DNA of 54,488 bases from Thermoplasmata archaeon (GCA_021796895.1 JAKABN010000001.1:1-54488), one strand, 5' to 3'; numbered from the stretch's first letter, positions 24,249-48,279 are shown. Notes: generated by a model from the letters alone, not told the origin. Translations and numbers: made by a program.

Positions 24249-24405
24249 TATCACTTTTCACGGACCTGTCAAAGATAAATAGAGTGTACTCCTTTCTGCC
24301 TGTCAGGCAGGACAGGACCACGGAGGAATGTGATTGAGAATTGCAATCAAATCTTTATTCTCATTCTTCGCTCATAATAAAGCCGACGTTAAACAAGGTC
24401 AGGTC

Positions 24406-27400: not shown

Positions 27401-28800
27401 GCAGCGGCGCCAACAGCACGATAATAGCGCCGGCAGTTGCCGGCGTTGGAGATCAGTATACCATGTACATTCGCGTCACCTACTGGAACGGTGCCCCCGC
27501 CGCTTTTGTTCCGGTGGATTTGGCATCGCCAAACCTTGTGTCCCCGCCGTTCTCCCCTGTTCCGATTCAGGGCACGAGCACAGTCACCAACGCTTCAGGC
27601 ATCGCCGCACTTACGATTGACTATGGTGTATCGATAGCCTCGCAGTCTTCCCAGGGTATGCTTCTGATACAGGCGTTCAACGACACCTATCCGTCGGAAT
27701 CCATGCTCACTCCTTCCACAAATCTTACCGTGCTGACCAATGACAGCACTTCCGTTGTGCTGTTTCTGGGCCAGGCATTCGGCACGGCCTACACAACAAT
27801 ACTGCTCAGCTCCGGCTCAGTTCTGTACACGCCGTTCATAGGCACAAGCGGCGCCTACGGCAATTTTTTCATTGAAAGTCCGACTTTCGCACCTCTCAGC
27901 TCATACAACAACATAACCTCTATATCATATTCAGTCGACGGAGTAACTCCGGTCAAAGTTCCCCTGCCGTCGGCAGGTCAGAACAGTTTCCTGTGGTCCT
28001 TCCCCCTGTCCGGTCTCTCTCCGGGCCAGCACACTCTCGCCGTAATGTTCAATGACTCGCACGGTTTTGCCTATTCCGTCGACTACGTGTTTTATGTGAT
28101 AGGCAGCGGTACCAATCCGGGACCCGCAGTTTCGTTCACATCTCCATCGCAGGGTTCATACGTTTCGGGCCCGACAACGGTTTCTTTCACATCAACGCAG
28201 TCCCAGTATCTGCTTTCGGAAACACTCAGGATCAATCAGATATCGTACAACGTCCGCGGCCTGACGTCATTCACATTCAACGCTTCCACATTCGGCTACG
28301 GTGTGATGACGATCACGCTGACCTCTGTCAATTACAACGGCGTCTCGGCATCGACCTCCCTGCTGCTGTATGCCGCTCCGCAGCTCAGGCCCGTTGCGGC
28401 GATAACTTCGCCCACTCCCGGCAGGGTCTTCAATTCAACAGACAGCGTTACAGTCGGCTTCTATTATTCAGGCGACTACATATCATCTGCGACTCTTCAT
28501 GTTACGGGCCCCTCAACAAACGCATCCTACAATGTCAATGGAATGTCGTCCTACACTCTCAGCAGGCTGGCAAAAGGAACTTATCATCTCACGTACACTG
28601 TGACAAGCGCTGACGGATCATCAGGCACGGCCTCAGGCAACTTCACTATACTTTCGACTCCGGCCCAGACTGCCGGCGCGGCGTTCACTGACATCTCCCC
28701 GCTGGCAGGCGGTCTTATGGCTGCCCTGTTCCTCGCCGGCATACTGATCGGACTGTTCATCGACCGCGTGAGAAAGAGACCGCCTCCGAAAGTGCCGTGA
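24406..28800 (+). CDS. Giant membrane-anchored S53 (sedolisin/kumamolisin-type) serine-carboxyl peptidase with a long Ser/Thr-rich C-terminal extension
   Basis: A pro-kumamolisin-like activation domain is present (SFKIRNEQQLVTLISEQQTPGSPLYHHFLSLSQFQQSFGP). The Glu/Asp pair is in EFTLDIEYSG. ITNSWGG and ASSGDQGG are present. The Ser nucleophile is in GGTSFACPTIAGEF. About 850 aa of beta-rich extension follow. The C-terminal anchor is LMAALFLAGILIGLFIDRVRKRPPPKVP. The start is uncertain between 24334 and 24406. Confidence 0.85.
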   Translation: MAHEARYRVSCATPRPADSTSHTVNAFRMCAAVAVAAALILSGLSIYLIRANTASGPVATVSGPSTAQLIHGPYASSGPTELPMLKGATSIGLVPGSMPMYLTVSFKIRNEQQLVTLISEQQTPGSPLYHHFLSLSQFQQSFGPTSQVYNEALSYFTAMGFTQVPTGTTMTLAFRASAGDVGSAFKTQIGFFRLHNGSTVYSNIRSLSLPVPISSSISSVNGMTDIVKIHTGLVHSPFFEYGGYLPLAASSSGTSQYSNMSRAVNFTKPGFLYTGKSFPYGQWQFLNPSVLGTAYNATPLYALGDRGQGTTIAVVMAGGYNPSDLATYSKMVFNSSSQILNRLTPYPVNGGTANATLPGAVLQTGGDAFEFTLDIEYSGTMAPGAHIDAVYGPSLSTASLVSAYAKLTTISPLPNVITNSWGGSEDTWWNLYGPSWQSAGALENYFMELTSMGSTILASSGDQGGYDSFSGLLSTSIPASSPYVVAVGGVRTTVSNATGVQFPSPSQYSVNATVAPFGFSETSSYPAWFPNYTLNASSPRNVTSNSYWYTPGFTPSSPDFASGGIGLSYWFEQPWWQHGKSVPYTGRRMVPDVSAEADFNQTVYFGGAWNFFWGGTSFACPTIAGEFALLDTYLNSTAGNSSNRSGYYLGLAQPLLYNLGNDPHLPLVPYSQISSGGNPWDNYASAGGLGWPGGQNWPYAYAAPLRGWNLLTGWGVPNVAGMVLDAAALLSKSSSYNQFFVELNGSTPAALPGDATYTFTLVNSTGAPVSGANVSMAFTSADGVTNYSAATTNATGRFSFAAGGLHGYLSLYSSRLPSLSSGFASIWISLPNLSSGIVSVTVLGAGHSVMGGFDFFNGFLSPNYPALGSLMPNTVRVLVTYKATPTSVAVPVYNAMLLASTPSEPYFSSPPAYTNPYYTALSSLNYTPARSLSFTNLSGIAYVETWNVQHPENYTIFASYRGLTNATHLAVTPRFNIQSLNTFSSTEGTRAGGSPGYIGSGANSTIIAPAVAGVGDQYTMYIRVTYWNGAPAAFVPVDLASPNLVSPPFSPVPIQGTSTVTNASGIAALTIDYGVSIASQSSQGMLLIQAFNDTYPSESMLTPSTNLTVLTNDSTSVVLFLGQAFGTAYTTILLSSGSVLYTPFIGTSGAYGNFFIESPTFAPLSSYNNITSISYSVDGVTPVKVPLPSAGQNSFLWSFPLSGLSPGQHTLAVMFNDSHGFAYSVDYVFYVIGSGTNPGPAVSFTSPSQGSYVSGPTTVSFTSTQSQYLLSETLRINQISYNVRGLTSFTFNASTFGYGVMTITLTSVNYNGVSASTSLLLYAAPQLRPVAAITSPTPGRVFNSTDSVTVGFYYSGDYISSATLHVTGPSTNASYNVNGMSSYTLSRLAKGTYHLTYTVTSADGSSGTASGNFTILSTPAQTAGAAFTDISPLAGGLMAALFLAGILIGLFIDRVRKRPPPKVP

Positions 28801-35486: not shown

Positions 35487-38264
35487 TTATTTCTTCTCTT
35501 CTTCCTTGACGCCTGCTTCGGGTGCCTTCTCCGTGCTGTCTGCTTTCTTCTCTCCGCTCGTCTCTCCGCCCTTCAGATGCAGCCTGTGACCCGTGTATGC
35601 CATGAATGCGATGGCGACGGCTAAGAGCGTTATCAGTCCCCACAGCAGTGAACCCAGGCTCACTCCGCCCACAACGTTGTAATTCCATACGGGTTCGGAG
35701 TTGGACACAGCGAAGTTCTGAAGCGCGCTGCTGTAGCCGCCGTTGCCGTCAACGGCAGAGACGCCAAGTATGTAGTTGCCGTTGCCGAGATTCGAAGGCA
35801 CAGTGTACTGAAGTGATCCGCTCGTTGAGGTGACGGTGTATGTGACTGTGGAAGTGGATAGGCCAAGCACCTGAATCCCTATCGTATAGACGGGAGAGCC
35901 GGAGGACATCTGGTAGGTCGAGATGTGGTAGTATATCGTTATGTGCTGACCCGCCACGTAGGTTCCGGTCACATAGCTGGAACTGGACATTGTGACGAAG
36001 AGCTGGAAGCCGGTCTGCAGATATATTGAACTGTAGGCATTGACCGTTCTTCCGGAAGTGCTGTTGGCAGCGATGACTTCAATGGTGTAGCTGAACGAAG
36101 GCACTTTGGGCACGGTGAAAACAAACGACGTCTTCAGCGTGCTGCCGCTCATTATCGTGTTTCCCGCGTTGTCGGTTATTGTGTAGTAGTATGTCGGAGA
36201 TGAGAAGCCCTGGCCCATAACATAGTACGAGACCTTCACATTCTGGGACGGCACATAGTTGTTTACACCGGTGCTGAGCACCAGCATTGCCTCGGCAACC
36301 TGCACGTAAACAGTGGTGGAAGCCTGGTTTCCGGCGGCATCAGCTGCATTTACACTGAGGCGCATTTGGCCCCACAGTCCCTGAGGCAGCTGGAACGTGA
36401 TTGTTCCTGTGGAACTCGTTCCTGCTGTTATCGCTCCACCGTTGATGGCCGCGGAATAGGAGGCTGTTGCTCCTGTGACTGCACTGCCGTTCGTTACCAG
36501 CTGCCAGGCTGCGCTGAACTGGCTGCCGCTCACATACACTACCTGAGACGGCACAACCACCAGCGTGTACTGCGCTGTCTGCTTTATGAGGTCGAACGAT
36601 GTCGTTGATATGCTGTTCCAGCTGAATGCCGATGTGCTGGCGTTGACCGTGTATGTGCCCAGGGATGCATTGGACGGAAAGACAACGACGAAGGATGCCT
36701 GTCCCTGGCCGTCGGTGGAAAGTCCCTTCTGGCTGTAGGCAGAGAGCTGTTTGTCCATGAATGATATGTTTGCGTAAACCGTAGCACCGGCCACAGGTGA
36801 AGTCTGGAATCCCCTGAATCCGTTGACATATGCATTGACGGTGACAAGCACCGGCTCGCCGGGTGTGTACGATATGGATGATGTTGCCACGTCGCTGACG
36901 AGTTCGTTCACGCCGACATCAACTGTCGTCTGGGCACTGTGACCGTACTGGTCCGTAGCCTTCAGTGTGATGCTCACAACGGATCTGAAATTCGTTGAAG
37001 CGGGTATCTGTATGTTCAGGGCGCCTCCGGATACAACTCCGCTCTCAGTCTGCTTGCCTCCGCTGTTAGTGTAGTTGAGCGTGTATGTTACGCTTGCACC
37101 ATTAACCGGTGCGTCATTGGAAGTGTTAGTCACAGTGTAAAATATGGAGGCCGGTTCGCCCGGAACGTACGTGTATTCATTCGAATAGGCATGAATCGCG
37201 ATCGCCTGGAATGATATCACCGTCGAATAAAACTGGTAGCCGTTGGACGCTTCTGAAACATTGAATACGTAATAACCGTCCGGAACACTGTAGTTGACGT
37301 AATACGATGCATTCCAGTTGCCGGAATTCACGGGGCTGTTTGTCAGGTTGAAGTACGTTGTGCCTGTGCTGAGACTGACAATTGTGGCGTTGACATTACC
37401 GTCAAACGGCTGGAACTGTCCGTTGAATGTCAGCAGCAGTCCCTGACCGTACACGTTATTCGAGGACGGCGGAGATATGGTCACCTGGTTGTTTATGATG
37501 TAGTAAATACCATTGCCTGTCTGCGGATAACTCGCTGAGGAACCGGCCGGTGTTCCTGCAAAGTAAGCAGTAAGGTTGTACTTCGCCGGACCTATGTAGA
37601 CATTCGCTGCCGGGAAATTGACAAGGCTCACACCGAAATCATTCGGCGAATAGTATCCCACAAATTGCCGATAGCCGTTGGGGTAGCCGGCAGGTGTTGT
37701 CAGCAGATATATCTCAAGACCAGCGCTAGTGTTTCCGCTCATGGGATTGCCGAACTGATCGGTTGTTTTCGTGTACGCATAGACATCGCTTGTGCTGAGA
37801 ACATACATGTTGGGCGTGTTGTAGTTCGGGAGCGTCATCTCTATGGATGTCGAGTACACCGGATATAAGATTTTCAGGCTGGTATTCGCAATCTGCGTGC
37901 CAGCAATCGATGCTTCCAGCAGGTAGTTGCCGATAGGCATTCCTGTCAGATCAAAGAATTGAAAATTGGAAGAAACCCAGGACTGGTATGTTCCGGAGGA
38001 GGACGTTATCACATTCTGCGTGCTGACCGTCTGTCCGCCGGTGCTGTTCACGAGTGAAACCGTCACCAGCGTACTTGGCGCTGCGTTGTAAATACCGTAG
38101 AAGAGCGCTCCGTCAACTGTGAATTTCGACTGTACTGTTCCATAGGCGTTGTTCGCCGTCAGAGATGCCGATGTGGCGGCCGATGCGTTTCCCGTCGGAA
38201 CCACTATAAGCAGCGCTGAAACAATCACGAACATAGCGATCATGCATGCTGTTAATTTATTCAT
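35487..38264 (-). CDS. Large secreted, C-terminally anchored Ser/Thr/Asn/Tyr-rich surface protein (S-layer-like candidate)
   Basis: The signal peptide is MNKLTACMIAMFVIVSALLIVVPTGNASA. About 850 aa of beta-rich sequence with many sequons follow. The C-terminal TM helix is LLWGLITLLAVAIAFMAY, followed by a Lys/Glu-rich tail. Confidence 0.8.
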   Translation of the reverse strand: MNKLTACMIAMFVIVSALLIVVPTGNASAATSASLTANNAYGTVQSKFTVDGALFYGIYNAAPSTLVTVSLVNSTGGQTVSTQNVITSSSGTYQSWVSSNFQFFDLTGMPIGNYLLEASIAGTQIANTSLKILYPVYSTSIEMTLPNYNTPNMYVLSTSDVYAYTKTTDQFGNPMSGNTSAGLEIYLLTTPAGYPNGYRQFVGYYSPNDFGVSLVNFPAANVYIGPAKYNLTAYFAGTPAGSSASYPQTGNGIYYIINNQVTISPPSSNNVYGQGLLLTFNGQFQPFDGNVNATIVSLSTGTTYFNLTNSPVNSGNWNASYYVNYSVPDGYYVFNVSEASNGYQFYSTVISFQAIAIHAYSNEYTYVPGEPASIFYTVTNTSNDAPVNGASVTYTLNYTNSGGKQTESGVVSGGALNIQIPASTNFRSVVSITLKATDQYGHSAQTTVDVGVNELVSDVATSSISYTPGEPVLVTVNAYVNGFRGFQTSPVAGATVYANISFMDKQLSAYSQKGLSTDGQGQASFVVVFPSNASLGTYTVNASTSAFSWNSISTTSFDLIKQTAQYTLVVVPSQVVYVSGSQFSAAWQLVTNGSAVTGATASYSAAINGGAITAGTSSTGTITFQLPQGLWGQMRLSVNAADAAGNQASTTVYVQVAEAMLVLSTGVNNYVPSQNVKVSYYVMGQGFSSPTYYYTITDNAGNTIMSGSTLKTSFVFTVPKVPSFSYTIEVIAANSTSGRTVNAYSSIYLQTGFQLFVTMSSSSYVTGTYVAGQHITIYYHISTYQMSSGSPVYTIGIQVLGLSTSTVTYTVTSTSGSLQYTVPSNLGNGNYILGVSAVDGNGGYSSALQNFAVSNSEPVWNYNVVGGVSLGSLLWGLITLLAVAIAFMAYTGHRLHLKGGETSGEKKADSTEKAPEAGVKEEEKK

Positions 38265-38464
38265 ATAGGCACACCATGAGCATTTTCTCGGTTTTCATCG
38301 GTAGTTTCTGCTTTTAACTACCTTTCTAGACAAAAATCGAATAAGGATTCTCAGAACGTGTCTGAGGCCGATGATGCGGCAGACTCGTGACTGGCATACC
38401 GGGAAGCGGCAGTCAGGAACCGGGTTTTCCCCCGTTCCGGAAAACGGCGACGAGGGTCTCCGGC

Positions 38465-38920
38465 TCAGAAGGGAAGGATGTATGTCTCCTTCACCGTATT
38501 CAGGACCACCTGTGTCATCGTCCTCTCAATATACTCCATTGTCGCCACCTTCTTGATGAACGCATTTAGATCATTCCTGCTTGCAAATCTGGCAATAATT
38601 ATGGAATCCCACTCGCCTGTCACGTCATACACAGCGGAGATGTGCTTGTCGGCTGCAATTTTTCTCTGGACATCCATCAGCTTGCCTTTCGATATCTGGA
38701 CGCCGATGATGGCTGTCATGTCGTATCCCGTCTTCGAAGGATCAACAAGCGTGGAGTACCCCGTGATTACACCCTCGCCTTCCATCTTCTTGACCCTCGA
38801 GGAAACGGTGTTGAGAGACATGCCAAGCTCTCTCGCAATGTCTCTGTAACTCTTCCTGGCGTTCTCCTGCAAAACTCGCAGTATCGACAGATCCGTTCTG
38901 TCGAGCTCAAACTCGGACAT
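38465..38920 (-). CDS. Lrp/AsnC-family transcriptional regulator
   Basis: The sequence is LDRTDLSILRVLQENARKSYRDIARELGMSLNTVSSRVKKMEGEGVITGYSTLVDP followed by a RAM domain. The start is at MSEFELD. Confidence 0.9.
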   Translation of the reverse strand: MSEFELDRTDLSILRVLQENARKSYRDIARELGMSLNTVSSRVKKMEGEGVITGYSTLVDPSKTGYDMTAIIGVQISKGKLMDVQRKIAADKHISAVYDVTGEWDSIIIARFASRNDLNAFIKKVATMEYIERTMTQVVLNTVKETYILPF

Positions 38921-38992
38921 TTCTGGGGCTCCTTGAGACCTATATGCAACGGTGAATTTCAAACCTGCTGCCGTTCCTCGCACACGGCCGCC

Positions 38993-39514
38993 TCATATCT
39001 GCAGCCAGGTGTCGATGAAACTGTCCACGACATTGTCCAGAAATGTGGATCTGTATGTGATTATTACCCTGACAACCTCGTCGACGTCTGTGACCTCATA
39101 TGTCGTTCTGCTGCTCGATCTGTTCTCTTTCACTATGCCTGTCATGAGCAGTTTCCTGAGATGAAATGAAAGCGCGCTTTTTGTAAATTCAAACTGGGAC
39201 AGTATACCATCGAATGTGCTGTTTCCGTTCTGAACGAGGTATATTGCTATTCTCCTCGGTGTCTTCAGTTTCAGGACGGAAAGCATCTCCCTGTCAAATC
39301 TGCTTACCTTCTGCTGAACATAATACCTCTTTCTGAAACCGTCGTCAGCAGATGTGAGGAGTTTCAAATCCTCAAGTACTCCGAGATGATACTGCACGAG
39401 TCCGAATTGCATCGACAGTTCCCTCTCTATCTCCCTGGCATAGGTTCCAGGCCGTTCGCTGATGAACTGGAAGATCCTTCGTCTTGTTTCGAGGGATAAG
39501 GGGTCTTTTTCCAT
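38993..39514 (-). CDS. Transcriptional regulator with two ArsR-like winged-helix domains
   Basis: Domain 1 is RRRIFQFISERPGTYAREIERELSMQFGLVQYHLGVLEDLKLL. Domain 2 is RRIAIYLVQNGNSTFDGILSQFEFTKSALSFHLRKLLMTGIV. Confidence 0.8.
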   Translation of the reverse strand: MEKDPLSLETRRRIFQFISERPGTYAREIERELSMQFGLVQYHLGVLEDLKLLTSADDGFRKRYYVQQKVSRFDREMLSVLKLKTPRRIAIYLVQNGNSTFDGILSQFEFTKSALSFHLRKLLMTGIVKENRSSSRTTYEVTDVDEVVRVIITYRSTFLDNVVDSFIDTWLQI

Positions 39515-39526
39515 CCACTTCCCACA

Positions 39527-39790
39527 TTATTTGAACACTGATGCGTAGAAGAAGAACAGAACGGCAAGGTCAAGGATGCTCATCAGCGCAAGCAAATCCG
39601 CGTAAGCCGCGCTCCCTGTCAGCGCAATATAGAGAATGAACACCTCCTTGATGAAGTAGAAACCAAACGCGACAGAAAGCAGAGTCGTCTTCACGCTCTT
39701 CACTCTCAGCGAGCTGATGAGCGACACTACGAGCAGCAGCAGTGAGAAGCCCAGCACCAGGAATATCAGAAACAGCACAATTTCATTCAA
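39527..39790 (-). CDS. Small three-helix membrane protein (hypothetical), first gene of the regulator operon
   Basis: The 87 aa are almost entirely hydrophobic helices. The start is TTG. It lies 12 nt upstream of the double-wHTH gene. Confidence 0.55.
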   Translation of the reverse strand: MNEIVLFLIFLVLGFSLLLLVVSLISSLRVKSVKTTLLSVAFGFYFIKEVFILYIALTGSAAYADLLALMSILDLAVLFFFYASVFK

Positions 39791-40060
39791 CGGACCATCA
39801 TCCTTCGGTACAGGCGGGTCATTTACTTTAAACCTAAAGTAATATACTGTGAGGCACGGATAATCCTCAAATCCGGTTCACTTTCGAGTTGCCGCTTTAC
39901 GCCGATCGTGCCCCGCATGGGTGAGCCTGAGATGCCAACTCTCCCGCAGTGCCACTTTCCTCTGCTCAATTGCCCGGATTTTTGTAGCCAAAACGGTTTT
40001 CTAAACAATTATATAGTGTTATCACGAAATGAAACGACCGCACGGACAGATGTGATTAAA

Positions 40061-41380
40061 ATGGGCGCAAGGAAAAGGATGCTGCTTCTGGGGATTGCAA
40101 TTTCATGCATGCTGGCCGCGAGCATCGTTCAGGTTCAGTTACAGGTACATTCACAGGCTGCGGCTGCGACGGATGTCGCGCCACACACGCTTGTCACGTA
40201 TCCGAATTTCCGATTCCAGTCCATTCTCAACGGGTCTTTTTACGGCTCAAATTCCTCAACAACTCTTTTTTCACCGTTCGTTGTATCTAACGGCTCTTTT
40301 GTGCACGGAAGATATGTTAATTTTGTTATGGGCTATGGAAGCGAAGTATTGCCAAACTCTGTGAGCGTGAACGGACCTGAAATTTTCAATTTTCATCTTA
40401 ACCAGAGCCCGATATCCGGCTCCTCTTCCCAGTTATTCAGTTCCATGCTCTTTCTCTCCACATCTTCTTCATCTTTCACTCAGGGCGTCAAGGGGCCGAT
40501 TTTTTATCTCTATTCAAATTCCATGCTGATCATAATCCACGACGACCCTCAGGGAATAATGCAGTTTTACACCAACAATGAAACAGTATTCGTCTCCGTG
40601 TCTCTGTCCATCGGTCTGACACTTTCGAGCAGTCTCCAGTCAGGCATGCCTGTCCAGAAGAGTTTCAGCACGTTGACATATTCAAATGCGAACATGACCG
40701 GTTACATCATGACAGGCGGCCCCAACATGAGCTCCAACTCGACTGCGATCAATCAGATTTCCAGCTATTATGAGGTGCAGACAACTTTGGCCGCCTACTC
40801 GTTTCTCTCCACCTTCCAGGTGCCAAACACAGTCAGCACCTTCAACTCGGCCCTGACCTACCTGGCGCAGGGAATGGCAAAAGGGGTAGTGTCGTACCTC
40901 GCATCGGCGACCATGTCCGGCGGCGCTTTCTCTTACGAGTCTTCGTATGCTCTTCCGTCAGTATCTGTCACGTCGGTCAGCGCGCCGAAGGACGGCATCA
41001 GGCTGTCGGTGGACAGCAGCGGCATCGCCGGCGGGACGACAATGGTGTTCCTTTTCGGTGGAGGTCTTTACAATCTGACCGGAAGTCAGGCGTATGTTTA
41101 TGTCAACGGTGAAAGAGTTACACAGCAGTCACGGCTGACATCACTTATTCTTTCCGGTCCCGGTAATTCAACATCATATAATGTGAGCCGTATCGGCGGC
41201 TACACCATGGTTGCAGTCAGCTCTCCAAATCAGGTATCAGCCATTCTGCTTTCATCCTCCTCACCTTCATCAACAGGCATTTCTGTCTCAAATGCGGTTT
41301 CGGGACTGATTCCCCTTGTTGCGGCGCTGTCTGTGATTTCAATTGCATCTGTGGCGCTTTATAGAAGAAAATCAGCGTAG
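40061..41380 (+). CDS. Secreted, C-terminally anchored Ser-rich surface protein (hypothetical)
   Basis: The signal is MGARKRMLLLGIAISCMLAASIVQVQ. The body is Ser/Thr/Asn-rich. The C-terminal anchor is LIPLVAALSVISIASVALYRRKSA. Confidence 0.7.
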   Translation: MGARKRMLLLGIAISCMLAASIVQVQLQVHSQAAAATDVAPHTLVTYPNFRFQSILNGSFYGSNSSTTLFSPFVVSNGSFVHGRYVNFVMGYGSEVLPNSVSVNGPEIFNFHLNQSPISGSSSQLFSSMLFLSTSSSSFTQGVKGPIFYLYSNSMLIIIHDDPQGIMQFYTNNETVFVSVSLSIGLTLSSSLQSGMPVQKSFSTLTYSNANMTGYIMTGGPNMSSNSTAINQISSYYEVQTTLAAYSFLSTFQVPNTVSTFNSALTYLAQGMAKGVVSYLASATMSGGAFSYESSYALPSVSVTSVSAPKDGIRLSVDSSGIAGGTTMVFLFGGGLYNLTGSQAYVYVNGERVTQQSRLTSLILSGPGNSTSYNVSRIGGYTMVAVSSPNQVSAILLSSSSPSSTGISVSNAVSGLIPLVAALSVISIASVALYRRKSA

Positions 41381-41398
41381 CGTCATGCGTTTCCGCAG

Positions 41399-41983
41399 TC
41401 ACAGTTTGGAATTCGGCGTCTTCATTATCTTTATGGCGCCGGACTCCAGCGCAAGAACTGCTCCCGGCCTGCCGTTTGGAACACCGGAAATAATGTTCAT
41501 GCTTCTCTCGAGGAGAGCAAGTTCCCTCTTTTCCAGTGTGTGTGTATCCAGTGAAACCAGAAGAACAGAATCCCTGATTATCAGCAAATCCCTCACATGG
41601 TTAAGGAAACCCATGACAAGATCAAAACTGTTCTGATTTATCAGGTATTCAACTCCGTCGAGCATGACTATGCATGGCGAATTGTCCTTTGTGAACGAGA
41701 CGATTTTCTTCAGTATCAGGCTTGTCTGGGTCGGCTCCACACACTCCCTCCCGACAACATGCGTCAGCCATACGACGTTGGCCCCGTCGCCGTCATAGAT
41801 GGATTTTATCCTTTCAGGATATTCCCGTGTGATGAGCAGTGTCTTAAAACCCTGAACCGAGGTTTCGGCATAAATGTCAAAGAAGAAGGACGGCTTTGGT
41901 TCTTCAATAATATAAACTTCACCGGAGACAATGCGGTGCGAGTCAATTTCCAGCAAGATCCCCTTGGTTTGAGGCTGATCCAT
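41399..41983 (-). CDS. Stand-alone cytoplasmic DUF835-like protein
   Basis: It carries LLITREYPERI, VVWLTHVVGRECVEPTQTSLI and CIVMLDGVEYLINQNSFDLVMGFLNHVRD. These are collinear with the other two DUF835-like domains in the window. No P-loop and no TM helix are present. Confidence 0.8.
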   Translation of the reverse strand: MDQPQTKGILLEIDSHRIVSGEVYIIEEPKPSFFFDIYAETSVQGFKTLLITREYPERIKSIYDGDGANVVWLTHVVGRECVEPTQTSLILKKIVSFTKDNSPCIVMLDGVEYLINQNSFDLVMGFLNHVRDLLIIRDSVLLVSLDTHTLEKRELALLERSMNIISGVPNGRPGAVLALESGAIKIMKTPNSKL

Positions 41984-42144
41984 CGGTCAGTGGTTGCTGA
42001 CATCACCTTTAATACATGAAGTGCTCATTATCAACGCTGATTTTCACGAAGGAATCACCTTATTTGTGAGCCGGAAGAGAATACTGCACTGAAGTTTGAT
42101 GATTCCTGTTGCGAATTTCGTTCAGTTGCTGGAGTATAAAACGA

Positions 42145-44028
42145 ATGTCACTGAAAATCTGTCTCCTTCTCGCCATGGCCGCACTGCTGATTTTTCAGAT
42201 GCCGGTCCCGACAACGATGGTCTACGGACATGGCACTCAATTTCGCCAGTCTGCCGCTGTTTTCAGCGCGGCGTCGCCGTTTTCACCTGAAGGGACGCAT
42301 GAGACGCCGGTAACCTCCGCCTTTTCCGGCAGCTCGTCATCTCCGTCAGTGAGCGGCGCCTCTGTCACTCAGCTGAATTCTTCATTCATTGTTTCCACCG
42401 CCGGCACGTATGGCACAACGGTGGTATTCGCGCCGATCAGCGGAATGCCGTCCAATTTCACGATAAACAACAACTCCGCCGAATTGATTGACAGTCACGG
42501 CAGCACAGTTGCCGTTACAAACGGAATGTTTAACTCAGGCTTCTCCGGAATCCTTGCAAACTTCTCCGTGACGCTGCTGGGAAACGTCAGCGGAGGCCCC
42601 TTCGCGCTCTCAATCTCCTCCGGGAGCAGTGATTTCGAGCTGATGCCGGCCGGCATATCTTCGATACCGTCTGCGAATCCCGCCCTCTACGTGTTTCCTG
42701 TGAAACAGTACAGCGGCGGCCATGTCACGATAATGGTTTCGGGGCTTCCCGCGAACTATAACGCGGGTTATCCTGTCATAGACAACACTTCCATACCTTC
42801 TTCCCGCATAGGCACAGATGCAAACGGCGCAGGTTATGCAGGTATCACCCTGCCCGGAATTCCCGGCGGCAATTACACAGTCAGGATGCGTAATTATATG
42901 GCGGTGGAGGGAACAGGAACTGTTGTGCCGTTCATGTCGCTCATTCCATCATCTGGTCATGTCGGTCAGGACGTTCTTGCGCTTTTGACTGGCTTCCACC
43001 CTGACGGCACTGTGCACATCACATGGGCCGGAGCCAGATTCAACGTCAGCGGAAGGATGAACGGTTTCGGAAAAGGTGTCGTCGCATTTGCCGTGCCAGT
43101 TTCGGAGCACGGGTCCCACGAGATTTATGCAACCTCCTCCGGACAGAATGTGTCGTCTGTTTTCTCAATAAATCAGACTCTGATATCCCTGTCGGCGAGC
43201 AGTGGTTCTCCCGGAATGCCTCTTTCAATTACCGGAACAGGCTTCGTTCAGGGTGACACTGTAAGGCTGCTTGTTAACGGCCACGTGTACGGAGCAGTTT
43301 CGGCTTCCGTGGCTGCAAACGGCTCTTCCTTTATGTCACTGCGTGTGCCTGCTCTCACGGCAGGACTGTACGGCTTCGGGCTCGAGTCCGCATCCGGCCT
43401 TGTTTCAAACAGCACTTATTTCACCATCAGACCGCTGCTGGTTTCGACCGCCGTGAAGATCCGCCCAGGGCAAACAGTCCAGATCAGCGGATACTATTTT
43501 TCTCCCAATTCCGGTGTAGACTTATTCTGGTATTCCGGCAGGTCTTCAGCATCAGTGTCCAGTGGCAGCAACGGCTCATTCTCCTTCTCCGTCATCGTGC
43601 CGTCAATACCAGGGGGCCCTGAGCTCATCGGCGCCGTTGATGCGAGGGGTAACAATGCAACACCCATGATGATATTCATATCGCCGCTGATTTCATCCTC
43701 CGTCAGAAGCGGTTTCGCCGGACAGACCGTAGTTATATCCGGATCTGGTTTTTCGCCAGGGAGCCACATTTCGTTTCTCTGGGACGGCAACAGCACCGGC
43801 CGCACAGCGAAGACAAACGCCTCGGGCTCGTTCAGCTTCCCTTTCGTCGTGCCTGCCTCTGTTCCGGGAACTTACATTCTGTCGGTCAACAACACCAGCG
43901 CAGGTCAGATAATCTTCACTGTTCTTCAGACAGTTCCATGGACAGATTATCTTCCGGCAATTGTCATTCCGCTGATAACCGGCATTGGTGCATCGGTATA
44001 TCTCTGGCGCAGGAAGCACCGGAACTAA
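42145..44028 (+). CDS. Secreted, C-terminally anchored surface protein with four IPT/TIG-like Ig-fold repeats
   Basis: The signal is MSLKICLLLAMAALLIFQMP. The repeats resemble SGSPGMPLSITGTGFVQGDTVRLLVNG and GFAGQTVVISGSGFSPGSHISFLWDG. The anchor is LPAIVIPLITGIGASVYLWRRKHRN. Confidence 0.75.
   Translation: MSLKICLLLAMAALLIFQMPVPTTMVYGHGTQFRQSAAVFSAASPFSPEGTHETPVTSAFSGSSSSPSVSGASVTQLNSSFIVSTAGTYGTTVVFAPISGMPSNFTINNNSAELIDSHGSTVAVTNGMFNSGFSGILANFSVTLLGNVSGGPFALSISSGSSDFELMPAGISSIPSANPALYVFPVKQYSGGHVTIMVSGLPANYNAGYPVIDNTSIPSSRIGTDANGAGYAGITLPGIPGGNYTVRMRNYMAVEGTGTVVPFMSLIPSSGHVGQDVLALLTGFHPDGTVHITWAGARFNVSGRMNGFGKGVVAFAVPVSEHGSHEIYATSSGQNVSSVFSINQTLISLSASSGSPGMPLSITGTGFVQGDTVRLLVNGHVYGAVSASVAANGSSFMSLRVPALTAGLYGFGLESASGLVSNSTYFTIRPLLVSTAVKIRPGQTVQISGYYFSPNSGVDLFWYSGRSSASVSSGSNGSFSFSVIVPSIPGGPELIGAVDARGNNATPMMIFISPLISSSVRSGFAGQTVVISGSGFSPGSHISFLWDGNSTGRTAKTNASGSFSFPFVVPASVPGTYILSVNNTSAGQIIFTVLQTVPWTDYLPAIVIPLITGIGASVYLWRRKHRN
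42940..43925 (+). repeat. Four tandem ~75-aa Ig-like (IPT/TIG-type) protein repeats
   Basis: The recurring pattern is G..v.i.G.GF.p...v.l...g......v...G.F.f...VP....G.y. It appears in PSSGHVGQDVLALLTGFHPDGTVHITW, SGSPGMPLSITGTGFVQGDTVRLLV, RPGQTVQISGYYFSPNSGVDLFW and FAGQTVVISGSGFSPGSHISFLW. Confidence 0.55.
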
Positions 44029-45620
44029 GCCGAGTTCTCTTCCTCGACCCCGGGAATTTTTTTCAGCCGGCCGGTTTCGTTTCTCACTTTTTCCGTTGAA
44101 AGACGTTCGGCAAGCAGAACTGCCTTCAGCAGCAGGCCGGAATTCTCTCTCAACTGCTGTTCCATCTCGTTCAGGGCGCGCTGTTTACCTTCGGGCTCAG
44201 TGAGCTCCCTGAGCCTGTCGTCAATTGTTCTCAGGAGTTCCGTCTCCCGGTTACGCATATTCTCCTCCACTGTCCTGATCTCCTCCTTGATGATCTCGCG
44301 GGCGCCCTCCAGCTCGTTCAGACGCACGATCTGCCTGTCCTGTCCCTGGATGTTTCCGGACTTCACTGCAACTATGGCATTCTCGATTCTCGAAAGATAA
44401 CTGTCGAGTCTGTCCTCCAGCTGCTGTCTCCGGACAGCCTCCTCTTTCAGCCTTTCCTCGATTTCGGCACTCAGCGAATCCGTTTCCTCTGCGCTGTTGT
44501 CGCTGTACACTGTCTCGGATCCTCGCTCAATGAGCGCCAGATGCTGTGCGTCAAGTGTTCTTGGATCTACAGAGACAACGACGGTGGTTCCGGTCGTAAT
44601 TATCATGTCTTCTATCCTGTTGATGAATTTGAGGACCGCGTCAAAGCCGTTGTTGGCTATCAGATATTCCAGACCGTCTATCAGCACTATGCCCCTGCGG
44701 TTGGAGTCAATAAATTTTGTAAGAGAATTCTGAACGCTTCCGAGATGTGTCGGATTGACGCATCTTCTTCCGACCAGTGTGGTCAGCCATATGACATCAT
44801 CCTCGTTTATGTGTATGAACCTCACCGACTGCACTCTTTCCGGTGGTTCACGGCCGATTATCATGCACTTCATCCCCTCGTTTGAGAGTCTGCGTATCAG
44901 CGCGTATGACAGGTATGTCTTCTTTTCCTGTATGATGACAACAGAGCCGGGCTGTATCTTTCCATTGCTGATGAGCACGTCGACTTCATCGGCGATATCC
45001 GGCAGCTCGCCCACACTTCCCGATTCCTTCAACCGTGCTACCGGTCTGAGATGCTTGAATATATGCTCGGGCGGATTGTTTCCCCTGTAGACCGATCCCT
45101 GAATGCTGACTTCTCCTAGAATCGTCGAGTCATCCTTGAAATTTGCAGAACCTCCGACTCTGGCAGATCCGCTGATCTTCGAATTCTTTTCCATGATAAG
45201 ATCGCCGTCCACGCTGACGTCCCCCTCAATAACCGTGTCCGCACCGATCCACATGTCTGCCTTCGACGTTACGCCTGACTTTATTACGGAGGAAGCGAAG
45301 ATGCTGACGTTCCCTTCCCTGTCAGTGAAAATTCTGTCCGCGGGATAATTCTCAGTCTGCTTATCTGCAGCATTACGTCCGGGTCCTGTCAGGGCGAGAA
45401 TGCCAAAGAGAGGCGTCACTTTTTGTTTACGTCTGATTTTCGCTATATTGCGCGACATGCCAGCACCCGCGCAGTGAACATTGACTATGCTGTCAATAAA
45501 GCTTCCGACAGAGCCAGTCTCTGCATTTTTGCACTCCGCGTCGAGGTAGTTTATGCCTTGCCGGGCAGCACCCTTCTGCTGGTACAGCCTCACATTTCTT
45601 TTCCATTTAGATGTAATCAT
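44025..45620 (-). CDS. Cytoplasmic fusion protein: bactofilin-like beta-helix, DUF835-like domain and a C-terminal coiled coil
   Basis: The beta-helix repeats are ADMWIGADTVIEGDVSVDGDLIMEKNSKISGSARVGGSANFKDDSTILGEVSIQGSV. The DUF835-like motifs are MIIGREPPERV, VIWLTTLVGRRCVNPTHLGSV and GIVLIDGLEYLIANNGFDAVLKFINRIED. The last ~150 aa are charged heptads (EERLKEEAVRRQQLEDRLDSYLSRIE...). The start may be the Met at 45458. The stop overlaps the convergent gene by 4 nt. Confidence 0.8.
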   Translation of the reverse strand: MITSKWKRNVRLYQQKGAARQGINYLDAECKNAETGSVGSFIDSIVNVHCAGAGMSRNIAKIRRKQKVTPLFGILALTGPGRNAADKQTENYPADRIFTDREGNVSIFASSVIKSGVTSKADMWIGADTVIEGDVSVDGDLIMEKNSKISGSARVGGSANFKDDSTILGEVSIQGSVYRGNNPPEHIFKHLRPVARLKESGSVGELPDIADEVDVLISNGKIQPGSVVIIQEKKTYLSYALIRRLSNEGMKCMIIGREPPERVQSVRFIHINEDDVIWLTTLVGRRCVNPTHLGSVQNSLTKFIDSNRRGIVLIDGLEYLIANNGFDAVLKFINRIEDMIITTGTTVVVSVDPRTLDAQHLALIERGSETVYSDNSAEETDSLSAEIEERLKEEAVRRQQLEDRLDSYLSRIENAIVAVKSGNIQGQDRQIVRLNELEGAREIIKEEIRTVEENMRNRETELLRTIDDRLRELTEPEGKQRALNEMEQQLRENSGLLLKAVLLAERLSTEKVRNETGRLKKIPGVEEENSA

Positions 45621-45780
45621 AAGTACGCTTTTTCGCTTTCCCGATCATTACCATAGAGCGACGGAATCCGTCCAGCCGCGAAATGAGTTTATTTATCCCT
45701 CCTCTCTTTAGTGGGGGAAAGGGGAGACCACGGAAATCTACAATGCCGTTGCGATCGCTATACTGCTGCCATTCACCGTA

Positions 45781-48279
45781 TTGTACGCCCTGTATCGCAT
45801 AGATCCAAGATACCTCATAGGTCTCGGACTGATTTTACTGATATGCTCTGCCGTGGAATCTTCGCTTGGCAATTCCGTCATTTCCAACGATATAGCGATA
45901 GTCTTCTTCTACTGCCTGGTCGTGGGTGTCCTGCTTCTGATAGTCGATGATTACAGGGATTCGCACAAACACAGCAAGAAAACACTCGTTTCGCCCATGT
46001 CTGAATATGCAATCCTGCTGACCGACTGGATAAAGAGACACTATGTGCTCATATCCCGTATACTAATTCCCGCGGCCTTCTTTTCAGCAATTTCGCTGAT
46101 TATAACATGGACTTTCCTTCCCCCGGGGTATGTTCTCGTCACGGACATGGTGTTTGGTCCACGCGTACCGCTTTCAGGTGTTTATGCGCTTTCTCCATCC
46201 CTGGGAGGTGGAAACACCCTTGCAGTTTTTGAGTATGTGGCTTACCTGATGATTCCGGGATGGCTTGTCGAAAAGATATTCCTGTTCCTGATATTTTTCC
46301 TTTCCTGCTGCACAATGTATCTGTTCTCCGGCCATTTTCGCCTTAACGGGCCATCAAGATATTTTTCTTCAATACTATACGCTGTCAATCCGTTCGTCTA
46401 CGCCAGGATCCTTGCGGGTGCATGGGGCCTTCTGTTTGCATATTCATTGTGCCCGCTGGCATTCCTCTCTTTTGTTTCTCTGATGTCGGCCGCGAACCGC
46501 AGAGATATGCTGACACGTGCTGCCCGCACGGCTCTCGTGTTTTCCGTGCTGGCAGTCTTTGACATTCACACCTTTGTGTTAATGATCGGTCTTTCTGCTC
46601 TGTATTTTGTCGTCCTCTTTGTTTACGAGGGAAGAGGCAAACCGGCCTCGCATCTTTACAGAACCGGTACTTCAGTTCTGCTGCTCGCATCGATGCTGTA
46701 CCTTCTCAACTTCTACTGGCTCTATTCGGCCGGTCCGTCCACGCAGCAGATTCTCGGCAATTTCACGTTCCTCGACGCGATTGCATTCGCATCCACTCCC
46801 ACCATTTTCGGCAATACGATGTTCAGCATTGCTGCCATGTACGGTTTCTTCCGGACGGGCTACATCTATCCGGTAAACGTGTTTCCGCCGCTGATTGCGA
46901 TATTCTTCCTGTTCTTCTTCCTGTCCGTCTTCGGCCTGGTCAGCTATTACGGCACTGCCAAGAAGCCGGCGGCCGTCACCATGGCTGTTGCGGCCGTATT
47001 CTCTGTTCTATTTGCGACTGGAATTGCCTCGCCCCTCACATCCGGCCTGTACACTTTCATGTACGACAGCTTTCCGCTGTTCAACGGTTTCAGAGAGCCG
47101 CAGAAATTCGTAGCGCTTCTCGTCTTCGCATACAGTTTCCTAGGCGGCCTGGGAATATTGCATCTCCAGTCTTTCCTGACGGGCAAGGGCAGGGACATGC
47201 TGCCGGAGGGCAGCAGAAGATATGTCGTGGCTGCAATTGCCGTCATCATCGCCGTCTCCCTGCTTTCCCCGTTCGTCTACTCGTACATGGAAATAAACTC
47301 GTTCGACGGGCAGCTGACAAATGTCCATTACCCTTCGGCCTGGTACAGGGCGGAGAGCATCATGAACAACAACACATCGGATTATTCGGTACTCGTATTC
47401 CCCTGGCACGGATACATGTATTATAACTGGAGCGGCACCAAGTTCGCTTCTCCCTTCAATTCGTTCTTCAAACAGGATCTCATATATGGCGGGCGCAACA
47501 CTTACGTCGGCGGAGAGGGTTCACAGCAGCTGTTCTCTCCACTGATACTGTCGATCCTGAATGAACGGAATAACATATCACACCTTGGCAACATACTTTC
47601 GGTTATGGCCGTGAAATACGTTTTCCTCAGCAAGAGCGCTGATTACTGGAACTATTCCTTTCTGTATCACCAGAGCGATATGCGGCTCGTGGAGAACAGC
47701 ACGACCTGTGCACTGTTTCTCAATCTTCATCCTGTTTCAAGGGCGTACATCGTGCACGAAGTCGTTTCTGTGTCATCATACAGGCAGCTGATCGCTCTTT
47801 CGGTCAATTTGAGTCTGAATGAATATGCCTGGACTCTTTCCGGTGGCGGAACATCCGGTGGCGCAACACCTTCTGCCGGGGGAGGCTATTACATTCCTCT
47901 GGTCAGCAGCAAGATTAACGACGCAAGATACACCGTGTCCCTGCCTGGTCTGATCGGCATGAATTCAAGCAACTATCTCGTGTTTGCAACTCCAGGAGGT
48001 CTGCCTTCTGAATGGGCGACAGAACCCGGGCTGATATCTTATTTTTCACAGACTGGTTTATCCATTTCCAGCTCGACAGGCGATATGATATTCCAGGTCA
48101 GGGGCGGTCCGGCACATATTGCATTCAATTATCTTCCTTTCCGGTCGGCCGAAATATCATATGGAATCTCGGTAGCATCCTTTGCAGCCATACTCACGCT
48201 GTTTGTTGCGCTGCCGTTGCTGGAGGAGCGATTTGATTTGCACATCCTTCCCCCGCTACCCCGGAAACGCAACTCCTGA
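45781..48279 (+). CDS. Large polytopic membrane protein with GT-C / STT3(AglB)-like architecture (putative glycosyltransferase)
   Basis: About 13 or more TM helices are followed by a soluble domain of roughly 300 aa. That domain begins AWYRAESIMNNNTSDYSVLVFPWHGYMYYNWSG. A final C-terminal helix is present. The hydrophobic reading frame is open from 45712, but the first canonical start codon is the TTG at 45781. Confidence 0.7.
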   Translation: MYALYRIDPRYLIGLGLILLICSAVESSLGNSVISNDIAIVFFYCLVVGVLLLIVDDYRDSHKHSKKTLVSPMSEYAILLTDWIKRHYVLISRILIPAAFFSAISLIITWTFLPPGYVLVTDMVFGPRVPLSGVYALSPSLGGGNTLAVFEYVAYLMIPGWLVEKIFLFLIFFLSCCTMYLFSGHFRLNGPSRYFSSILYAVNPFVYARILAGAWGLLFAYSLCPLAFLSFVSLMSAANRRDMLTRAARTALVFSVLAVFDIHTFVLMIGLSALYFVVLFVYEGRGKPASHLYRTGTSVLLLASMLYLLNFYWLYSAGPSTQQILGNFTFLDAIAFASTPTIFGNTMFSIAAMYGFFRTGYIYPVNVFPPLIAIFFLFFFLSVFGLVSYYGTAKKPAAVTMAVAAVFSVLFATGIASPLTSGLYTFMYDSFPLFNGFREPQKFVALLVFAYSFLGGLGILHLQSFLTGKGRDMLPEGSRRYVVAAIAVIIAVSLLSPFVYSYMEINSFDGQLTNVHYPSAWYRAESIMNNNTSDYSVLVFPWHGYMYYNWSGTKFASPFNSFFKQDLIYGGRNTYVGGEGSQQLFSPLILSILNERNNISHLGNILSVMAVKYVFLSKSADYWNYSFLYHQSDMRLVENSTTCALFLNLHPVSRAYIVHEVVSVSSYRQLIALSVNLSLNEYAWTLSGGGTSGGATPSAGGGYYIPLVSSKINDARYTVSLPGLIGMNSSNYLVFATPGGLPSEWATEPGLISYFSQTGLSISSSTGDMIFQVRGGPAHIAFNYLPFRSAEISYGISVASFAAILTLFVALPLLEERFDLHILPPLPRKRNS

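Follow-up and report, generated by a model that had tools for sequence, protein, structure and literature searches.

Galperin et al. 2018 (PMC5847659) list DUF835 (PF05763) as an inactivated KaiC-like ATPase domain (iKaiC) of archaea. In their account, REC-DUF835 response regulators of Methanomicrobia and Thermoplasmata use it as their output domain, and it belongs to the KaiC-hub scheme proposed by Makarova, Galperin and Koonin in 2017 (mBio 8:e01959-17). MEDS is a further iKaiC domain of archaeal signal transduction. Bactofilins (PF04519), such as BacA and TtBac, are right-handed beta-helices with rungs of ~18 residues that polymerise via an open hydrophobic interface (F130 in BacA, F105 in TtBac) and have the membrane-targeting consensus MFSKKKK (PMC12448750). 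Halofilins (HalA/HalB) are bactofilin-type proteins that shape archaeal envelopes and are reported mainly from Halobacteria and Methanomicrobia (PMC11459167). Here, we describe a locus at positions 35487-48279 of a 54,488-nucleotide stretch of DNA from an uncultured, acid-loving Thermoplasmata archaeon of the Candidatus Sysuiplasma group (GCA_021796895.1 JAKABN010000001.1:1-54488; the whole stretch is referred to as the window), in which a stand-alone DUF835 gene and a gene fusing DUF835 to a predicted bactofilin-like beta-helix are interleaved with genes for envelope proteins. The protein families involved are known; what is new is the combination of beta-helix, iKaiC domain and helical part in one protein, and the conserved alternation of this architecture with envelope genes within the order Candidatus Sysuiplasmatales. 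We know of no experimental study of the large DUF835/iKaiC family, and the locus thus offers a concrete conserved context, together with a new architecture, as an entry to the function of an abundant archaeal domain family.

The core of the locus is a block of eight genes in six transcription units, with the following features (aa, amino acids; ORF, open reading frame; TM, transmembrane):

38465-38920, minus strand: Lrp/AsnC-family regulator; start probably M22 of a 172-aa ORF (38465-38983)
38993-39514, minus strand: double winged-helix regulator, 173 aa (PF24266 and HTH_5)
39527-39790, minus strand: TM87, an 87-aa membrane protein with three hydrophobic segments; first gene of the regulator operon
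39791-40060, no strand: divergent promoter region between the regulator operon and surfA
40061-41380, plus strand: surfA, 439 aa, secreted, C-terminally anchored and sequon-rich; tail ending in LYRRKSA
41399-41983, minus strand: stand-alone DUF835 (iKaiC) protein, 194 aa (PF05763, E = 1.5e-32)
41984-42144, no strand: divergent promoter region between the DUF835 gene and surfB
42145-44028, plus strand: surfB, 627 aa, anchored surface protein with 4-5 tandem ~84-aa Ig-like (GxPGS/IPT-like) repeats
44025-45458, minus strand: fusion protein, 477 aa, defined by PF05763 (109.9 bits), alignment, AF2 models and Foldseek; predicted to consist of a disordered basic N terminus, a right-handed beta-helix (aa 43-125), DUF835/iKaiC (aa ~160-320) and three long helices (aa 329-465)
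45459-45780, no strand: divergent promoter region between the fusion gene and the GT-C gene, with ~200 bp of extra DNA
45781-48279, plus strand: polytopic membrane protein, 832 aa, ~11 TM segments, credibly of the GT-C superfamily (PF11847 and MmpA sub-threshold)

Every ORF sits at the coordinates given in a preliminary description of this DNA, which a model had made from the sequence alone, and its 18-bp gap (41381-41398), 161-bp spacer (41984-42144) and 4-bp overlap (44025-44028) were likewise recovered. That description had emphasised a repeated architecture of convergent pairs, each formed by a surface protein gene and a DUF835 gene. Gene class and orientation do recur; however, surfA and surfB are unrelated beyond their anchor and, therefore, the repetition does not reflect a duplicated cassette. 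Moreover, the members of each convergent pair lie on opposite strands and, thus, are not co-transcribed. The informative pattern is, rather than the convergent pairs, the strict strand alternation of the six transcription units, which creates three divergent promoter regions, i.e. between the TM87-wHTH-Lrp operon (wHTH, winged helix-turn-helix) and surfA, between the 194-aa DUF835 gene and surfB, and between the fusion gene and the GT-C gene. Each of these regions joins one gene for a cytoplasmic regulator or adaptor to one gene for an envelope protein. We tentatively read the block as a lineage-specific envelope locus of Candidatus Sysuiplasma-type Thermoplasmata, in which a pair of iKaiC adaptor/signalling proteins is tied to envelope biogenesis; of the explanations weighed below, this is the one that we find most probable, if at somewhat less than even confidence.

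All three DUF835 domains encoded in the window scored far above the PF05763 gathering cut-off of 33.1 bits, with 112.6 bits for the 194-aa protein, 109.9 bits for the fusion protein and 114.3 bits for an 813-aa TM protein encoded 18 kb away, and the collinear motifs previously noted as common to the three are present. The 194-aa protein is 38% identical to the DUF835 domain of the fusion protein, and had no match to the PDB by sequence at E <= 10. None of the three proteins contains the Walker A pattern [AG]xxxxGK[ST]; the P-loop position reads EEPKPSFF, QEKKTYLS or FEETAEKS. In Foldseek searches with the DUF835 part of the AF2 model of the fusion protein (pLDDT 64-86), RecA, Rad51, KaiC and FlaH were the top matches (E = 5e-4 to 2e-3), and the FlaH structure 4yds superposed with a TM-score of 0.51; the DUF835 proteins also gave weak matches to the NCBIfam ArlH/FlaH models (E = 3e-5 to 4e-3). 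The suggestion that these domains might have a KaiC/RecA-like fold without a P-loop was thus borne out by the fold search of the model and the missing Walker A motif. In total, the modelled fold and the sequence features identify the DUF835 domains of the window as RecA/KaiC-like domains without a P-loop, i.e. the already described iKaiC domain. It is true that DUF835 has no established function, as had been remarked; however, it was already classed as an iKaiC signalling output domain (PMC5847659).

The proteins of the locus resemble described iKaiC proteins in belonging to the same Pfam family at high score, in the RecA/KaiC fold without a P-loop and in their occurrence in Thermoplasmata. 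In the DUF835 loci examined here, as among iKaiC proteins, the domain stands alone or forms a C-terminal module on diverse input domains, and lies beside REC elsewhere. By contrast, the architectures described for iKaiC are REC-DUF835 and REC-PAS-PAS-DUF835 (PMC5847659), whereas the fusion protein has the predicted order beta-helix-DUF835-helical bundle. ArlH/FlaH of the archaellum motor is, similarly to DUF835, a single RecA/KaiC-type domain of ~230 residues, and its role as an accessory subunit of a membrane-associated machine for a surface structure would be a further likeness to the DUF835 proteins; however, ArlH has retained the Walker A motif that DUF835 lacks, and binds ATP. The window contains no archaellum genes, and no gene for a KaiC-family ATPase was found among the window ORFs scanned.

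In DUF835 proteins of widely differing architecture, residues R53, P56, W72, P84, D109, G110, E112, Y113 and D132 (positions in the 194-aa protein) show no or almost no variation, and the acidic DG[LIV]EYL motif occupies the Walker B position of the RecA fold. These observations bear on the idea that DUF835 is a ligand-gated switch, which would bind a nucleotide or small ligand via the Walker-B-like motif and the invariant Arg, Pro and Trp, so that its location among envelope genes would reflect metabolic or second-messenger control of the glycan supply to the GT-C protein. The conservation of these residues, an acidic hhhhDGxE motif at the Walker B position and the fusion of DUF835 to enzymes and ATPases (IleRS and DnaA-type AAA+) are consistent with such a switch. 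On the other hand, the Walker A motif is missing, and the conserved residues could equally form an oligomer interface. To our knowledge, no ligand has been reported for any DUF835 protein, and we regard a ligand-gated switch as the least probable of the explanations considered.

The 477-aa fusion protein adds to its iKaiC domain, according to the models, a bactofilin-like right-handed beta-helix and ~140 residues of long helices; these helices (aa 329-465) terminate with LLLKAVLLAEKLS, an invariant and strongly hydrophobic motif. The most likely start of the fusion gene is 45458 and not 45620, as previously proposed for a 531-aa ORF, because the orthologs, which are 394-487 aa long, all begin at the position of M55 of this ORF, and because a conserved promoter block (CTTTATTGAC...TAGTCAAT) lies inside the additional 54 codons. 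The conserved promoter element CTTTATTGA also falls inside this extension. Therefore, the spacer to the GT-C gene is 322 bp (45459-45780) and not 160 bp. The extension appears to be spurious and to be created by ~200 bp of extra DNA in the spacer (window 45500-45690), which is missing from the closest relative, L001 (loci of relatives are designated by L numbers); no second copy of this DNA was found in the window.

In the AF2 model, the beta-helix (aa 43-125) has pLDDT values of 95-98, a strand every 18 residues and ~4.6 rungs. The best superpositions were with the T. thermophilus bactofilin 6ria (TM-score 0.55, root-mean-square deviation 2.7 A over 82 columns), the MinC C-terminal domain and ice-binding proteins, all of which are right-handed helices, while left-handed acyltransferases were found at a probability of <= 0.04. 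A hexapeptide acyltransferase identity, to which weak PDB profile matches had pointed, was therefore rejected, as the fold search contradicts the handedness; Hexapep matched 7 of 12 fusion orthologs. PF04519 matched the fusion protein at 14.7-15.2 bits (E = 0.025-0.037), i.e. below its gathering cut-off of 27.9 bits, and gave sub-threshold matches with E <= 1 in all 12 orthologs (best E = 2e-5). Both ends of the beta-helix have invariant polar or charged cap motifs, FxDREGN and YRGNNPPEH, which argue weakly against open-ended stacking. Because PF04519 scored far below its cut-off, all Foldseek E-values for the isolated beta-helix were >= 0.2, i.e. not significant, and both ends are capped, we conclude that the predicted beta-helix is bactofilin-like in fold and not a demonstrated member of the bactofilin family, and that polymerisation is only putative. 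The bactofilin assignment in the preliminary description thus stands at the level of the fold only.

The fusion protein resembles bactofilins in its predicted right-handed beta-helix with ~18-residue rungs, the disordered basic N-terminal flank and the envelope-related context; it differs in its sub-threshold score, the shorter beta-helix, the polar caps at both ends and the fusion to a RecA-fold domain and long helices. Its N-terminal peptide reads MSIFGRFRKGK, MRIFRKTGK or MSFRRTVFSRKR in about half of the orthologs, and these hydrophobic/basic peptides loosely resemble the consensus MFSKKKK; in others it reads MHAVGCLP or MNAAYHEM. Halofilins have architectures unlike that of the fusion protein. 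In a profile search of 1.84 billion cluster representatives at 50% identity, the beta-helix-DUF835 architecture was found in 2 clusters, and a metagenome scan gave no further fusion orthologs and four short, distant DUF835 loci without new contexts. Moreover, neither a beta-helix-DUF835-helical-bundle fusion nor interleaving with genes for surface glycoproteins was found in the single paper mentioning DUF835. We conclude that the fusion and its pairing with envelope genes are a lineage-specific invention.

Both surfA and surfB are, as previously proposed, anchored surface proteins with an N-terminal hydrophobic signal, a C-terminal TM helix and a short basic tail. They contain 2.5-2.9 N-X-S/T sequons per 100 aa (18 sequons in surfB) compared with 0.38 in the TM-free proteins of the window. 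surfA matched no Pfam or NCBIfam family. For surfB, the NCBIfam model GxPGS_dom matched below its cut-off (E = 2e-9), and the four Ig-like repeats that had been noted were confirmed by a guided alignment, which shows four clear copies of ~84 aa and one degenerate copy; the repeats went undetected by self-BLAST and are visible in the guided alignment only. By BLASTP and hhalign, surfA and surfB are not homologous except in the anchor. Orthologs are 28-65% identical for surfA and 30-65% for surfB. In the cytoplasmic tails, which are 5-10 residues long, conservation is limited to a generic basic cluster (LWRRKHRN in surfB). A short basic cytoplasmic cluster is a requirement of any type I membrane protein. 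A specific cytoplasmic link through the tails is not supported; they are 5-10 residues of generic basic stop-transfer sequence.

These data allow the model put forward in the preliminary description to be assessed, i.e. that a bactofilin-like cortical filament or sheet carries DUF835 domains that bind the tails of surfA and surfB, and in this way couples the coat to a cytoplasmic scaffold. The 18-residue rungs and right-handed superposition on the T. thermophilus bactofilin, the sub-threshold Bactofilin matches in 12/12 orthologs, the N-terminal peptides in about half of the orthologs, the long C-terminal helices and the precedent of halofilins in shaping archaeal envelopes (PMC11459167) all fit such a scaffold. 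They are set against a PF04519 score of 15 bits versus a cut-off of 27.9, a helix of only ~4.6 rungs without significant Foldseek E-values, and invariant polar caps where bactofilins polymerise via an open hydrophobic interface (PMC12448750). Moreover, the tails are short and generic, the N-terminal peptide is not conserved across the fusion family, and no other DUF835 locus is paired with anchored proteins. The evidence for an envelope-to-cytoskeleton link is circumstantial, and the link fails the test of generality that the preliminary description had itself proposed (see below); we consider it unlikely.

The locus is conserved in relatives that include Candidatus Sysuiplasma acidicola and Ca. 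S. superficiale, among others. The order GT-C/fusion/surfB/DUF835/surfA/TM87-wHTH-Lrp was found in L001-L006, L008, L086 and L092. At least 10 assemblies of Sysuiplasmatales type retain the eight-gene block, at identities as low as 44%. On every contig of sufficient length (L001-L005, L008 and L092), the block is unbroken, while L006, which contains only the 3' end of the fusion gene at a contig edge, and L086 match over the extent of the contig; L007 is too short for the fusion gene or surfB. Both DUF835 genes are present in 9/9 assessable loci, and the convergent junctions lie within a few bases in most loci, the surfA junction being 56 bp in L005 and 110 bp in L086. Identities to the window are as follows:

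Fusion protein: 44-80%
194-aa DUF835 protein: 48-92%
GT-C protein: 46-76%
surfA and surfB: about 28-65%
Ribosomal protein S2: 86-94%

Rearrangements were seen only outside the eight-gene block, i.e. an insertion between the Lrp gene and the gene for an S-layer-like protein in L004, L008 and L092, and a TnpB gene in L001. In the latter (L001:1-985, Ca. Sysuiplasma acidicola), a TnpB/Cas12f-like gene (PF07282) adjoins the GT-C gene where other relatives have SOD; here, a mobile element has inserted at the border of the block.

This conservation is open to a second explanation, namely that the synteny is inherited by descent without any coupling, and that the DUF835 proteins are general-purpose iKaiC modules for signalling or oligomerisation in a young clade whose genomes are not yet scrambled. 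The region of ~50 kb is collinear in the relatives, including the genes for the TM-DUF835 protein, Rpb6, S2, Memo, SOD and other unrelated genes, and S2 is 86-94% identical across the clade. Moreover, convergent orientation rules out co-transcription, anchored proteins are not enriched beside DUF835 elsewhere, DUF835 has many unrelated fusion partners and contexts, and a relative, L095, retains the TM-DUF835 gene without the sedolisin gene that follows it in the window (see below). By contrast, descent alone does not readily account for three DUF835 genes within 25 kb, all of which have genes for secreted, anchored or polytopic membrane proteins as direct neighbours, and one of which encodes the domain together with an ectodomain and a TM helix. 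The same holds for the six strictly strand-alternating units, in which an adaptor or regulator gene is paired with an envelope gene each time, for the restriction of rearrangements in the clade to positions outside the block, and for the unbroken arrangement around surfA and surfB, which have diverged to ~30% identity. We regard uncoupled synteny as a serious possibility, second in probability to an envelope locus with an iKaiC signalling pair.

The generality of the association was examined in a scan of one genome per GTDB species with a profile from 6 DUF835 sequences, which gave 368 DUF835 relatives, of which the best 80 loci were examined; neighbours were classified with a simple ORF caller and a hydrophobicity-based class for anchored surface proteins. 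Anchored proteins flank DUF835 in every one of the orthologous loci. Among the 52 non-orthologous loci with a called DUF835 gene, on the other hand, 1/83 immediate neighbours was a protein with a signal peptide and a C-terminal anchor compared with 5/423 in the background. Thus, outside this clade, DUF835 genes are not enriched beside genes for such proteins, which is the outcome that the preliminary description had itself named as refuting its model. One locus, L022, at first resembled a distant counterpart of the surfA/DUF835 pair in containing genes for a 921-aa protein, a 180-aa DUF835 protein and a convergent 459-aa anchored protein; these proteins are not homologous to those of the window and, therefore, the locus was counted as chance.

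Several observations weigh against a coupling of the iKaiC pair to envelope biogenesis. The lack of enrichment outside the clade is the first of these. Moreover, DUF835 is promiscuous, being fused to IleRS or to DnaA-AAA and encoded beside Orc1/Cdc6, PolB and FEN1. Unrelated flanking genes are as collinear as the block (SOD, Asn-synthase-like, OMP decarboxylase, STT3, Memo and S2, and farther away GcvH, rhodanese, ACAD and an aminotransferase) and, therefore, conserved order is weak evidence of coupling; with S2 still 86-94% identical, it may reflect relatedness alone. By inspection, without formal motif discovery, no cis-motif common to the three divergent spacers was evident. The full-length AF2 model of the fusion protein is of moderate confidence only (mean pLDDT 68.7, pTM 0.37), and the fold matches of the isolated beta-helix are not significant, as described above. 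Finally, there is no direct evidence for an interaction among the block proteins, or for an envelope link beyond inherited gene order.

The envelope theme of the locus is supported by the sequon-rich anchored proteins, the presence of GT-C homologs in glycan clusters, the proximity of STT3 in relatives and the membrane-fused DUF835 paralog, while a signalling function is supported by the REC gene that adjoins stand-alone DUF835 genes in other loci. The unbroken block, with rearrangements just outside it, and the conserved promoter blocks of the spacers also favour the iKaiC reading. If the iKaiC pair is tied to envelope biogenesis, the two proteins, which are cytoplasmic, would serve the archaeal KaiC-type network as non-catalytic adaptor or signalling subunits on the cytoplasmic side of the membrane. 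The 477-aa protein could form an oligomeric, membrane-proximal platform, with the ends of the beta-helix, the helical bundle, the basic N-terminal peptide and the very hydrophobic C-terminal helix as candidate contacts, and the 194-aa protein would be a partner bound to this platform via a RecA-fold interface. Together with the GT-C protein, or by way of it, the two proteins would control how the neighbouring glycoproteins are produced, glycosylated or placed, and would not anchor these glycoproteins mechanically; the genes may be co-regulated via the three bidirectional promoter regions.

A more far-reaching idea, which we consider improbable, is that the 477-aa protein represents a new archaeal cortical element, in which a membrane-associated lattice of bactofilin-like beta-helices and helical bundles would display inactivated-KaiC hubs and position the GT-C enzyme and the glycoproteins together with the 194-aa paralog. 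If true, such a cortical lattice would organise the glycoprotein coat of Sysuiplasma-type Thermoplasmata. If the envelope link holds, the locus would be a first starting point for learning how the glycoprotein coat of these archaea is controlled or organised; if it does not, the locus illustrates that adjacency repeated within a young, highly syntenic clade should not count as a module.

The third DUF835 domain of the window is part of the protein that had been cited as a Rosetta-stone-type hint that DUF835 works with envelope proteins:

21807-24248, plus strand: single-pass membrane protein, 813 aa, with a sequon-rich PEGA-type ectodomain and a cytoplasmic C-terminal DUF835 domain

The ectodomain matched PEGA at E = 1.6e-4, the protein contains 37 sequons, and its orthologs are 41-68% identical. 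This paralog, 18 kb from the block, has an ectodomain and a TM helix in the same polypeptide and, therefore, at least one of the DUF835 paralogs works at the membrane. The hint stands in so far as DUF835 can end a single-pass surface protein; however, the ectodomain is unrelated to surfA and surfB, with hhalign giving probabilities of 13-34% in which the TM anchor alone aligns. In the window (24334-28800) and in L094 (11260-15546), the TM-DUF835 gene is followed by a gene for a secreted, C-terminally anchored sedolisin/subtilase of 1488 aa with a Pro-kumamolisin activation domain and Peptidase_S8. The sedolisin gene is missing at that position in L095 (GCA_027374475.1), where the TM-DUF835 gene stays, and this weakens the Rosetta-stone and neighbourhood argument.

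Profile searches of the 1.84 billion cluster representatives gave 3,393 DUF835 clusters; at E <= 1e-10, there are at least 1,440 at 50% identity, which are concentrated in Thermoplasmatota. Many Thermoplasmata encode a complete IleRS followed by C-terminal HhH repeats and DUF835 (1213-1538 aa). This architecture was identified by Pfam in L043 (6284-10438) and by BLASTP matches to L043 in L020, L024, L042, L044, L047, L048, L050, L056, L057, L060, L062, L067, L068, L073, L076, L081 and L083, and the FEN1 gene lies directly upstream in 14 loci. The fusion of an essential aminoacyl-tRNA synthetase to a signalling domain is unusual. DnaA-type AAA+ ATPase-DUF835 fusions of ~725-773 aa are encoded in L027 (1342-3519), L040, L077 (8276-10474) and L078, two of which adjoin the gene for family B DNA polymerase (PolB), and stand-alone DUF835 genes lie directly downstream of Orc1/Cdc6 in L012-L014, L017 and L037. 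The DnaA fusions and the adjacency to Orc1/Cdc6 suggest a replication-linked role for some DUF835 paralogs, and the IleRS and DnaA/Orc1 contexts may tell more about the role of DUF835 than the envelope cluster does. A further recurrent arrangement is a triad of a REC response-regulator gene, a gene for a 187-aa DUF835 protein and a convergent gene for a ~625-aa protein with 8 TM segments (L018:9545-12382 and 17 further loci, including L030, L039, L049, L053, L074 and L079); this conserved ~625-aa protein matched no Pfam family.

For the 832-aa protein, both GT-C profile hidden Markov models (HMMs) that matched are under their curated cut-offs, i.e. PF11847 GT-C_AftD with 23.1 bits (cut-off 26, E = 2.1e-5) and NCBIfam MmpA with 99.2 bits (cut-off 210, E = 2.1e-28); on the other hand, the protein has 10-13 hydrophobic segments, and homologs at 31-35% identity lie in glycan-synthesis clusters with genes for GT2, GT4, a sugar epimerase, a DegT aminotransferase and a flippase. 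This weak but consistent evidence makes membership of the GT-C superfamily credible, in partial agreement with the earlier call. MmpA/AftD of Corynebacterineae (PMC8698533; bioRxiv 10.1101/2019.12.22.885152) share with the 832-aa protein a polytopic N-terminal module, as seen in the sub-threshold HMM matches, and the occurrence of its distant homologs in glycan-assembly clusters is a further likeness; by contrast, the 832-aa protein is archaeal, falls under the curated cut-offs and is encoded divergently from an iKaiC fusion gene in this clade only. In relatives (L003:1-3379, L005:1-4339 and L092:15982-22334), a gene five genes from the GT-C gene encodes an unusually large STT3/AglB oligosaccharyltransferase (~2200 aa), in which CarboxypepD_reg/NOMO-like Ig repeats are numerous; the window ends short of the equivalent position.

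The identification of the regulators was confirmed. In the Lrp protein, HTH_24, the AsnC-type HTH (58.5 bits, cut-off 27) and AsnC_trans_reg (49.8 bits, cut-off 25) all scored over cut-off; orthologs are 71-94% identical and, because they are 147-157 aa long, the start is probably at 38920. The double-wHTH regulator matched PF24266 HTH_HVO_0163_N (61 bits, cut-off 31) and HTH_5 (46 bits), both over threshold, as well as an NCBIfam ArsR/SmtB subfamily (58 bits), and its orthologs are 58-85% identical. TM87 had no Pfam or NCBIfam match; its orthologs of 87-94 aa are found at the same position in L001-L005 and L092. Among PADLOC defence models, only generic wHTH (Csa3-like) matches to the regulator were obtained, and none for the DUF835, surface or GT-C proteins.

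Each divergent spacer has its own conserved promoter blocks. In the spacer between the regulator operon and surfA (39791-40060), the TATA-like element CACTATATAA is kept in the window, L001, L003 and L004, and a second TATA-like element, GGTTTAAAG, is oriented toward the regulator operon. Upstream of the 194-aa DUF835 gene, the block TGATAATGAGC...T(T/A)AATATTAA...GCCAG is kept in the window, L001, L004, L005 and L086. In the spacer between the fusion and GT-C genes, conserved TATA-like blocks, GGATAAATAAACTCATTTCG and CTTTATTGAC...TAGTCAAT, lie on either side of the extra DNA. No Rfam families or tRNAs were found in the window.

Next to the block lies the gene for the S-layer-like protein:

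35487-38264, minus strand: S-layer-like surface protein, 925 aa, with a signal peptide, a C-terminal TM helix and an acidic/Lys-rich tail

This protein gave sub-threshold matches to MG2, Big_13 and DUF4352, contains 17 sequons and has orthologs at 40-82% identity. In L004, L008 and L092, genes for a ferredoxin and two aminotransferases are inserted between the Lrp gene and the S-layer gene; therefore, the S-layer gene is loosely linked to the block. The spacer upstream of it (38265-38464 in the window) carries a strongly conserved block, TTCGATTTTTGTCTAGAAAGGTAATTAAAA, which is shared with L001 and L003 and precedes the start codon by ~50-60 nt; it is probably a strong promoter, after which a 5' leader of some 20-30 nt follows. 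Elsewhere in the window (2090-2998, minus strand), a 302-aa protein combines ~4 hydrophobic segments with a C-terminal C2H2-type zinc-finger array (zf-C2H2_6, E = 5e-18), and such a combination of membrane segments and C2H2 zinc fingers is an uncommon architecture for an archaeon.

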